DNA of 5,952 bases from a virus (Duplodnaviria; Heunggongvirae; Uroviricota; Caudoviricetes). The notes under the pieces are model-generated. The model searched no databases. It had not been told where the DNA came from and worked only from the letters and a program-made list of their open reading frames with translations. Positions 458-3,400 of this stretch are shown piece after piece. How positions within the stretch are numbered: position 1 is the stretch's first letter; every line of letters begins with the position of its first letter. The stretch lies in the IMG/VR virus record IMGVR_UViG_2648501437_000007. One strand, 5' to 3'. The translations under genes were made by a program, and so were the position numbers.

Positions 458-3400
458 ATGGGTAAAGGAAGCAGTAAGGGGCATACCCCGCGCGAAGCGA
501 GGGACAACCTGAAGTCCACGCAGCTGCTGAGTGTGATCGATGCCATCAGCGAAGGGCCGGTTGAAGGTCCGGTGGACGGATTAAAAAGCGTGCTGCTGAA
601 CAGTACGCCGGTGCTGGACAGTGAGGGGAATACCAATATATCCGGTGTCACGGTGGTGTTCCGGGCAGGTGAGCAGGAGCAGACACCGCCGGAGGGATTT
701 GAATCCTCCGGCTCCGAGACGGTGCTGGGTACGGAAGTGAAATATGACACGCCGATCACCCGGACCATCACGTCGGCAAACATCGACCGTCTGCGCTTTA
801 CCTTCGGTGTGCAGGCACTGGTGGAAACCACCTCAAAGGGGGACCGGAATCCGTCGGAAGTCCGCCTGCTGGTTCAGATACAGCGTAACGGTGGCTGGGT
901 GACGGAAAAAGACATCACCATTAAGGGCAAAACCACCTCGCAGTATCTGGCCTCGGTGGTGGTGGATAACCTGCCGCCGCGCCCGTTTAATATCCGGATG
1001 CGCAGGATGACGCCTGACAGCACCACAGACCAGCTGCAGAACAAAACGCTCTGGTCGTCATACACCGAAATCATCGATGTGAAACAGGGCTACCCGAACA
1101 CGGCACTGGTCGGCGTACAGGTGGACTCGGAGCAGTTCGGCAGCCAGCAGGTGAGCCGTAATTATCATCTGCGCGGACGCATTCTGCAGGTGCCGTCGAA
1201 CTACAACCCGCAAAAACGGCACATACAGCGGTATCTGGGACGGAACGTTAAAACCGGCATACAGCAACAACCCGGCCTGGTGTCTGTGGGATATGCTGAC
1301 CCACCCGCGCTACGGCATGGGGAAACGTCTTGGTGCGGCGGATGTGGATAAATGGGCGCTGTATGTCATCGGCCAGTACTGCGACCAGCCGGTGCCGGAC
1401 GGCTTTGGCGGCACGGAGCCGCGCATTACCTGTAATGCGTACCTGACCACACAGCGTAAGGCGTGGGATGTGCTCAGTGATTTCTGCTCGGCGATGCGCT
1501 GTATGCCGGTATGGAACGGGCAGACGCTGACGTTCGTGCAGGACCGACCATCAGATAAGGTGTGGACCTATAACCGCAGTAATGTGGTGATGCCGGATGA
1601 TGGTGCGCCGTTCCGCTACAGCTTCAGCGCCCTGAAGGACCGCCATAATGCCGTTGAGGTGAACTGGATTGACCCGAATAACGGCTGGGAGACGGCGACA
1701 GAGCTTGTTGAAGATACGCAGGCCATTGCCCGTTACGGCCGTAATGTCACGAAGATGGATGCCTTTGGTTGTACCAGTCGGGGGCAGGTGCACCGCGCCG
1801 GGCTGTGGCTGATTAAAACGGAACTGCTGGAAACGCAGACCGTGGACTTCAGCGTGGGTGCAGAAGGGCTTCGCCATGTACCGGGCGATGTCATTGAAAT
1901 CTGTGATGATGACTATGCCGGTATCAGCACCGGCGGGCGCGTGCTGGCGGTGAACAGCCAGACCCGGACGCTGACGCTCGACCGTGAAATCACGCTGCCA
2001 TCTTCCGGCACCACGCTGATAAGCCTGGTTGACGGAAGTGGCAATCCGGTCAGCGTGGAGGTTCAGTCCGTCACTGATGGCGTGAAGGTAAAAGTGAGCC
2101 GTGTTCCTGACGGCGTTGCCGAGTACAGCGTGTGGGGGCTGAAGCTGCCGATGCTGCGCCAGCGCCTGTTCCGCTGCGTGAGTATCCGTGAGAACGACGA
2201 CGGCACGTATGCCATCACCGCCGTGCAGCATGTACCGGAAAAAGAGGCCATCGTGGATAACGGGGCGCACTTTGACGGCGACCAGAGCGGCACGGTGAAT
2301 GGTGTCACGCCGCCAGCGGTGCAGCACCTGACCGCAGAAGTCACCGCAGACAGTGGGGAATATCAGGTGCTGGCGCGCTGGGACACGCCGAAGGTGGTGA
2401 AGGGCGTGAGCTTCCTGCTTCGCCTGACCGTGGCAGCGGACGATGGCAGTGAGCGGCTGGTCAGCACGGCCAGGACGACGGAAACTACATACCGCTTCAC
2501 GCAACTGGCGCTGGGAAATTACAGGCTGACAGTCCGGGCGGTAAATGCGTGGGGACAGCAGGGCGATCCGGCATCGGTATCGTTCCGGATTGCCGCACCG
2601 GCAGCACCGTCGCGGATTGAGCTGACGCCGGGCTATTTTCAGATAACCGCCACGCCGCATTTTGCGGTTTATGATCCGACGGTACAGTTTGAGTTCTGGT
2701 TCTCGGAAAAACGGATTGCTGATATCAGGCAGGTTGAAACCAGCGCGCGTTATCTTGGTACGGCGCTGTACTGGATAGCCGCCAGTATCAATATCAAACC
2801 GGGCCATGATTATTATTTTTACGTTCGCAGTGTGAACACCGTTGGCAAATCGGCATTCGTGGAGGCTGTCGGTCGGGCGAGCGATGATGCGGAAGGTTAC
2901 CTGGATTTTTTCAAAGGAGAAATCGGGAAAACACATCTGGCCCAGGAGCTGTGGACGCAGATTGATAACGGTCAGCTTGCGCCGGACCTGGCTGAAATCA
3001 GGACGTCCATTACGAATGTCAGCAATGAAATCACGCAGACCGTCAATAAAAAACTGGAAGACCAGAGTGCGGCAATCCAGCAGATACAGAAAGTTCAGGT
3101 TGATACAAATAATAACCTGAACAGCATGTGGGCCGTGAAACTGCAGCAGATGCAGGACGGACGCCTTTATATTGCGGGTATCGGAGCCGGTATTGAGAAT
3201 ACGCCAGCAGGTATGCAGAGTCAGGTGCTTCTGGCTGCTGACCGGATTGCGATGATTAATCCTGCGAATGGCAACACAAAGCCGATGTTTGTTGGTCAGG
3301 GCGATCAGATATTCATGAACGAAGTGTTCCTGAAATACCTGACGGCTCCCACCATTACCAGCGGCGGTAATCCTCCGGCATTTTCCCTGACACCGGACGG

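Follow-up and report, generated by a model that had tools for sequence, protein, structure and literature searches.

Here we analyse a 5,952-bp stretch of Escherichia coli DNA (the window), which is the whole of contig JHSO01000129.1 from the short-read-style draft assembly GCA_001266005.1. It is the tail-tip end (J, lom and tail fibre) of a lambda-like prophage of the tRNA-Ser/hya type of enteropathogenic E. coli (EPEC)-like strains, and its J gene is split over two reading frames. We consider it rather probable that this reflects a real and recent +1 frameshift that inactivated J in a prophage also hit by the insertion sequence IS5, and that was probably spread by recombination between J copies. 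In lambda, J is essential both for adsorption, as the receptor-binding protein, and for tail-tip assembly, which it nucleates. On this reading J is a prophage pseudogene of an ordinary kind, and the event is a familiar one that involves no new mechanism.

Two open reading frames (ORFs) on the plus strand, as are all features described here, at positions 458 to 1351 (ORF1, 297 aa) and 1293 to 3938 (ORF2, 881 aa), constitute one lambda-type J in two frames, in place of an uninterrupted frame of approximately 1130 to 1160 codons. A first-pass annotation, made from the letters alone, had assigned both ORFs to J, and the domain content bears this out. ORF1 aligns to lambda J (PDB 8iyk, chain J; E = 7e-161) over residues 1 to 256 only and contains the Pfam domain FNIII-A_GpJ (1e-42), while Phage-tail_3, Ig_J, Ig_J_second, Phage_Tail_Tip and Ig_GpJ_C are all found above cut-offs in ORF2. 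The PDB alignment, together with this division of the Pfam domains, identifies the two ORFs as a single gene. Based on ORF, Pfam and PDB alignment, J codons 1 to 254 occupy 458 to 1219 in the native frame and encode the N-terminal hub region, of which the FNIII-A domain is part; the last residue read natively is R254 (1217 to 1219). Residues 255 to 297 of ORF1 form an out-of-frame tail of 43 codons (HIQRYLGRN...CGGCG; 1220 to 1351, from ORF and PDB alignment) that closes at TAA 1349–1351. The rest of J, corresponding to codons 255 to 1159, lies at 1221 to 3938 (ORF and Pfam) in the frame one base forward; this frame is open from 1155, and its first ATG within the rest of J is at 1293. The proposal that the upstream frame runs off-frame until this TAA and that the forward frame is the natural continuation is therefore correct. 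Deleting G1218/1219 or C1222 in silico yields a single ORF of 3,480 nt (1,159 codons), whose product shares 99.5% identity with the intact J of O111:H2 strain 12A (WP_000515779.1). The split is not a chance pattern.

The first 254 residues of the window's J are almost identical to those of lambda J (8iyk), and the repaired gene has the full Pfam series. At 1159 aa the repaired protein is longer than lambda J (1132 aa), which lacks the interruption after R254. The C-terminal third of J (approximately 2860 to 3938), to which the receptor-binding domain belongs, has 16 to 22 differences per 100 nt relative to lambda and other compared J copies; as judged from sequence, this divergence suggests that receptor specificity may differ from that of lambda. 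This third is identical to that of the J gene in the serX prophage of O111:H2 12A.

The lesion itself lies in CGGCACA (1217 to 1223), which has one base too many in alignments to intact J. One 1-nt gap, at window position 1222 (GGCA[C]ATAC), is needed to align the site with J of lambda and of Lambda_ev203 and with two intact J genes from E. coli prophages, in agreement with the one-base change that had been predicted within 1211 to 1224. Compared to a second allele class, CG-CACATAC (copy 2 of O111:H2 12A), the extra base is the G at 1218/1219. With a 501-base query at the site, the matches listed include 30 intact phage J genes, each spanning 500 bases; likewise, the matches listed for a 211-base query include 40 from complete genomes, each spanning 210 bases. 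We also tabulated 125 alleles from IMG/VR and fetched loci, of which 112 are lambda-type (e.g., CAGACGCGGCAA, PQTRQY) and 12 are of the GAAAAACGCACA type (PEKRTY). All of these 125 other alleles are in frame, and within the allele table the 13-nt sequence CAAAAACGGCACA is confined to the window and one further contig, L007, which is described below.

Removal of C1222 gives PQKRQYSGIW, the product that the first-pass annotation had anticipated for a one-base removal. That part stands, but removal of G1218 gives PQKRTYSGIW, which may be the ancestral sequence instead, and the window site is nearest to the natural PEKRTY allele class. The repaired 45-mers resulting from either deletion have no verbatim occurrence in complete genomes, and the intact ancestor forms are not in IMG/VR either; since neither ancestor is found verbatim, the choice of the extra base stays ambiguous. 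The classes CGGCA-ATAC (PQTRQY) and CG-CACATAC (PEKRTY) differ by an apparent compensated −1/+1 indel pair 3 to 4 nt apart, and the window site holds both "long" states of that pair. The frameshift could be a form of hybrid incompatibility, with patchy recombination of two in-frame classes giving CGGCACATAC.

In terms of consequences, the extra base in CGGCACA would shift the frame after Arg254, and translation would end 43 codons further on. The predicted product is a 297-aa fragment without the Phage-tail_3 hub, both Ig-like domains, the tail-tip fibre and the C-terminal receptor-binding domains. The remaining 2.7 kb would have no independent route to a functional protein, as a start at ATG 1293 would drop approximately 280 N-terminal residues. 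Given that J is essential in lambda, the prophage alone should not be able to make infectious tails; infectivity has presumably been lost, and transfer would depend on helper phages or recombination. The lom and tail-fibre genes would stay intact.

Could J instead work as two polypeptides, with a 297-aa N-terminal piece and a separate 881-aa piece whose translation begins at ATG 1293? Each ORF is long and free of damage, but approximately 25 conserved residues (255 to 279) would be in neither piece, and the layout is present in no intact phage. Moreover, ATG 1293 lies inside ORF1, 57 nt ahead of its stop, and the only Shine-Dalgarno-like bases before it are GGGA, approximately 2 nt away. We give this explanation hardly any credence.

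We next consider the distribution of the frameshifted junction. Searches of 5,426 complete E. coli genomes and of 50,697 phage records with a 46-mer across the junction, for which megablast seeding is possible only if the junction itself is present, gave no hit, while the repaired 45-mers, serving as positive controls, match 34 and 3,857 genomes. The junction likewise has no match in GTDB species representatives or JGI metagenomes, and a scan of IMG/VR for the exact junction returned L007 alone besides the window. At the protein level, both truncated J products are singletons (one contig) among approximately 15 billion proteins. The out-of-frame tail has no match in a 5.8-billion-protein collection, of which apparently only cluster representatives are indexed. 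Intact J homologues with the same two-frame layout, a possibility that the first-pass annotation had considered, are present neither in phage records nor in complete genomes. The absence of the junction from these collections excludes a conserved recoding signal or a functional two-frame arrangement. As expected for a pseudogene, the window's J differs from intact orthologues by a one-base indel whose removal restores the full protein, and neither functional phages nor the intact relatives carry the lesion.

These data also bear on the idea that programmed or leaky +1 frameshifting at AAA-CGG (1214 to 1219; CGG is a rare Arg codon) makes some full-length J (PQK-GTYSGIW...). A slip after AAA (1214 to 1216) would enter the correct frame with one residue changed, and little full-length protein might be needed: a virion needs only three copies of J, as in lambda tail-tip structures such as 8iyk. 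However, the site is not conserved, as the searches with the junction and the repaired 45-mers demonstrate, and the tabulated alleles are all in frame. In addition, neither an X_XXY_YYZ heptamer nor an upstream Shine-Dalgarno-like element can be read in the stretch from 1190 to 1230, the site lacks an in-frame stop codon and offers only the rare CGG after AAA, and the sole other carrier has a second frameshift. We regard leaky frameshifting as very improbable; if it did occur, low-rate slippage by ribosomes pausing at CGG could give occasional infectious particles, and the "dead" prophage would be weakly transmissible.

The second carrier, L007, is IMG/VR contig IMGVR_UViG_2648501437_000009 (10,176 bp), an NCBI E. 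coli draft contig that contains the exact junction 31-mer. Its J is 95.3% identical to that of the window overall and identical over 1127 to 1255. The setting of the gene is different: in L007, gene I lies directly upstream of J without a small gene between them, and the contig starts with the other IS5 end (1 to 94), inside the tape-measure gene. In addition to the shared frameshift, at L007 position 4585, its J has a second +1 frameshift at 5397, where GG has become GGG (GACGGAAG to GACGGGAAG). Compared to the best complete relative, L007 has no other uncompensated single-base indel in 10 kb and is thus not a generally indel-ridden assembly. Both prophages are IS5-hit and J-frameshifted, and they may share a genome or lineage. 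The NCBI accessions of the window's Lom (EFG4452063.1) and of the L007 L protein (EFG4451832.1) are 231 apart, a hint that one annotated genome encodes both, but no more than a hint, as the J genes at ten loci with the identical lom differ from that of the window.

Another assembly, P0033 (a 1,295-bp Logan contig), contains a separate frameshift in J, with the off-frame sequence KIQQQHGLVSVG.... As a cluster-mate of the L007 product it was a candidate for the same event, but it was rejected given that its frameshift is approximately 12 codons further downstream. Independent frameshifts in this part of J thus occur in other assemblies.

Comparison with the J copies of O111:H2 12A and L007 revealed a mosaic patch of approximately 660 bp in the window's J, at 1117 to 1778. 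There are 41 differences between the window and the O111:H2 12A prophage, 28 of which fall within the patch; by comparison, there are none in 212 to 1116 and 1779 to 4354, of which 458 to 1116 and 1779 to 3938 belong to J. When aligned to the three J copies of O111:H2 12A (loci L003, L006 and L129), positions 458 to 1116 correspond to the copy J1, 1127 to 1255 are L007-like (identical, frameshift included), approximately 1223 to 1788 resemble the copy J3 with one mismatch, and the sequence is J1 again from 1779 onward. The boundaries are fine-grained, with position 1117 being non-J1, 1126 J1-like and the sequence from 1177 onward L007-like. The 28 differences in the patch translate to only 5 to 6 amino-acid changes, suggesting that the donor sequences were functional alleles and that the frameshift is young.

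The nearest relatives have at least three J copies per genome that are 95% to 99% alike, and strain 12A has five places per genome that match this part of J. Either the J genes of resident prophages often undergo gene conversion, leaving such a mosaic, or the mosaic is a caution about chimeric short-read contigs, and its presence in both the window and L007 points to the same two options, recombination among J copies or chimeric assembly. From the short patch and the occurrence of the same junction in an approximately 95% identical J pseudogene, we infer that the frameshift was spread by recombination, and it presumably originated by gene conversion or recombination between J copies.

Several observations weigh against a genuine lesion at this locus. 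The junction is found in none of the 5,426 complete E. coli genomes and elsewhere only in L007, and both truncated products are singletons in a very large protein set (approximately 15 billion). The rest of J (458 to 1116 and 1779 to 3938) has 0 differences relative to intact alleles, and this identity of the flanking sequence leaves two options, a very recent lesion or one that is not real. The window is a draft contig bounded by repeats, from a lineage with multiple J copies, and its patchwork could be an assembly chimera. With regard to L007, each of its two indels could be a G run lengthened by one base (+1), which is the direction expected of some platform errors. Finally, L007 may come from the window's own genome, in which case the recurrence would not be independent.

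Such points would be explained by a draft-assembly artefact, either a consensus indel at 1218 to 1222 or a contig threaded through approximately 1117 to 1778 of other J copies in the same genome, with the J gene at the locus being intact. Within this explanation, chimeric threading is more plausible than a consensus indel, and the frameshift would then belong to another copy. The complete 5,952-bp contig does have repeats at both ends, the J copies of the relatives are at least three in number and similar enough (95% to 99%) to be confused, and the window's J reads J1, L007-like, J3-like and J1 in succession. The confinement of the junction to two draft contigs, the match of the flanking J sequence to intact alleles, and the resemblance of the indels to G-run +1 events fit an artefact as well. 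However, consensus-level indels are rare in short-read assemblies outside long homopolymers, and the extra base lies outside any long homopolymer. A graph switch between paralogues cannot itself make an extra base, and a handful of simple switches between known copies would not produce mosaic boundaries this fine. The identical junction is present on a second contig with a different backbone, making it very probable that at least one J copy somewhere carries the frameshift for real. We treat an artefact as the less likely explanation, though a real possibility. In our favoured reading, a true recent frameshift, the indel is presumably present in the DNA of the cell. The two alternatives named in the first-pass annotation, a true defective prophage and an indel error, are the right ones.

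Damage to this prophage extends beyond J. The window starts inside an IS5 element, whose end occupies 1 to 212 as judged from the transposase C-terminus and the terminal inverted repeat: bases 1 to 66 encode the last 21 aa of the IS5 transposase, and the repeat ...CTTATTCGCACCTTCC ends at 212, where homology to the intact relatives begins. In complete genomes, the counterpart of bases 1 to 211 carries the annotation "IS5-like element IS5 family transposase" and is multi-copy (up to 22 places per genome); both the terminal sequence and the transposase C-terminus match annotated copies. The junction of IS5 with the small gene that follows is in no complete E. coli genome. This insertion, approximately 245 bp upstream of J, indicates that the prophage was already decaying and that J is not its sole lesion. 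A base-calling error cannot account for the IS5 junction.

The truncated small gene is represented by its 3′ remnant at 213 to 391 (59 codons of a 112-aa gene, identified by translation and PHROG). It has 36% GC and a lipoprotein-like signal (MNKTILFCTIIALTGC...), and matches phrog_914, a family of unknown function (7e-33). The gene is intact in O111:H2 12A (L003) and in strain 602687 (L004) as WP_001332187.1, between tail genes I and J. It resembles a cargo gene ("moron") with its own terminator-like hairpin. That hairpin, followed by a T-rich tail, lies at 415 to 445 in the gap between the small gene and J and is a consensus match only, with a 9-bp stem (6 GC pairs) and a hairpin count equal to that expected from shuffled sequence.

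Both contig borders, IS5 interior at the start and a repetitive tail-fibre gene (collagen-like plus C-terminal sequence) at the end, are break points typical of short-read assembly. Positions 212 to 5952 are 99.2% to 99.3% identical at the nucleotide level to a lambdoid prophage of O111:H2 12A, FDAARGOS_1059 and strain 602687, and no complete E. coli genome matches the window at more than 99.3%. In all three strains this prophage adjoins tRNA-Ser and the hya operon (serX/hya) and has the gene order K, I, the 112-aa hypothetical gene, intact 3,480-nt J, lom and tail fibre. The window retains this synteny downstream, with lom and the tail fibre following J; upstream the contig stops in IS5, where the relatives have K and I. 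The J of the relatives (WP_000515779.1) is a single ORF, and their small gene is free of IS5.

The relatives nevertheless show damage of their own. The prophage of O111:H2 12A (L003 7943–10531 and 17897–23633), which has the nearest intact J, contains an IS66-family element that truncates the K-like peptidase gene, and copies of IS66 and IS2 split its tail-fibre region; it adjoins remnants of espF-like and espV effector genes as well as tRNA-Ser. In the complete genome of strain 602687 (L004 9794–10392), lom of the sister prophage is annotated as "frameshifted" while J is intact, the reverse of the pattern in the window.

In the window, lom (4006 to 4605; assigned from ORF, protein identity and Pfam) encodes an intact Ail/Lom outer-membrane beta-barrel protein, as had been supposed. 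The 199-aa product is identical to a protein recorded from 36 contigs and matches Ail_Lom at 4e-126. Ten loci share this identical lom and all have an intact J; they were rejected as closer relatives because their J is only 87% to 97% identical to that of the window. The tail-fibre gene (4757 to 5952; from ORF and Pfam) comprises an N-terminal domain, collagen-like repeats and the start of a C-terminal domain, and is open to the contig end.

Compared to lambda, the window has the same succession of lom and a tail-fibre gene after J. Immediately before J, lambda has gene I, whereas the window has the small gene and IS5. A split tail gene is familiar from lambda as well: laboratory lambda PaPa reportedly carries a frameshift in stf, said to have been described by Hendrix and Duda in 1992, in which one base splits a tail gene into two adjacent ORFs. 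In lambda PaPa, however, stf is dispensable and the phage stays infectious, whereas the window's J is essential.

Lambdoid prophages of pathogenic E. coli often have morphogenesis genes that are disrupted (PMC2669165). Like the window, the prophages of the O157 Sakai "defective prophage pool" (Asadulghani et al. 2009, PMC2669165) combine IS insertions and broken morphogenesis genes with retained cargo. Recombination among co-resident prophages, probable here, takes place in that pool too, and a need for helper phages or recombination in transfer would match what is described for it. Our prophage is known from one contig and from sequence alone.

For annotation, the practical value of the finding is that J should be marked as a pseudogene, and caution is due wherever a short-read draft of a strain with several lambdoid prophages shows a mosaic J. 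The case exemplifies the routine decay of prophages in pathogenic E. coli and opens no new question. If the frameshift is real, the prophage would not be able to build its own tail tip, but would still express its cargo gene lom and could donate J segments to other phages by recombination.

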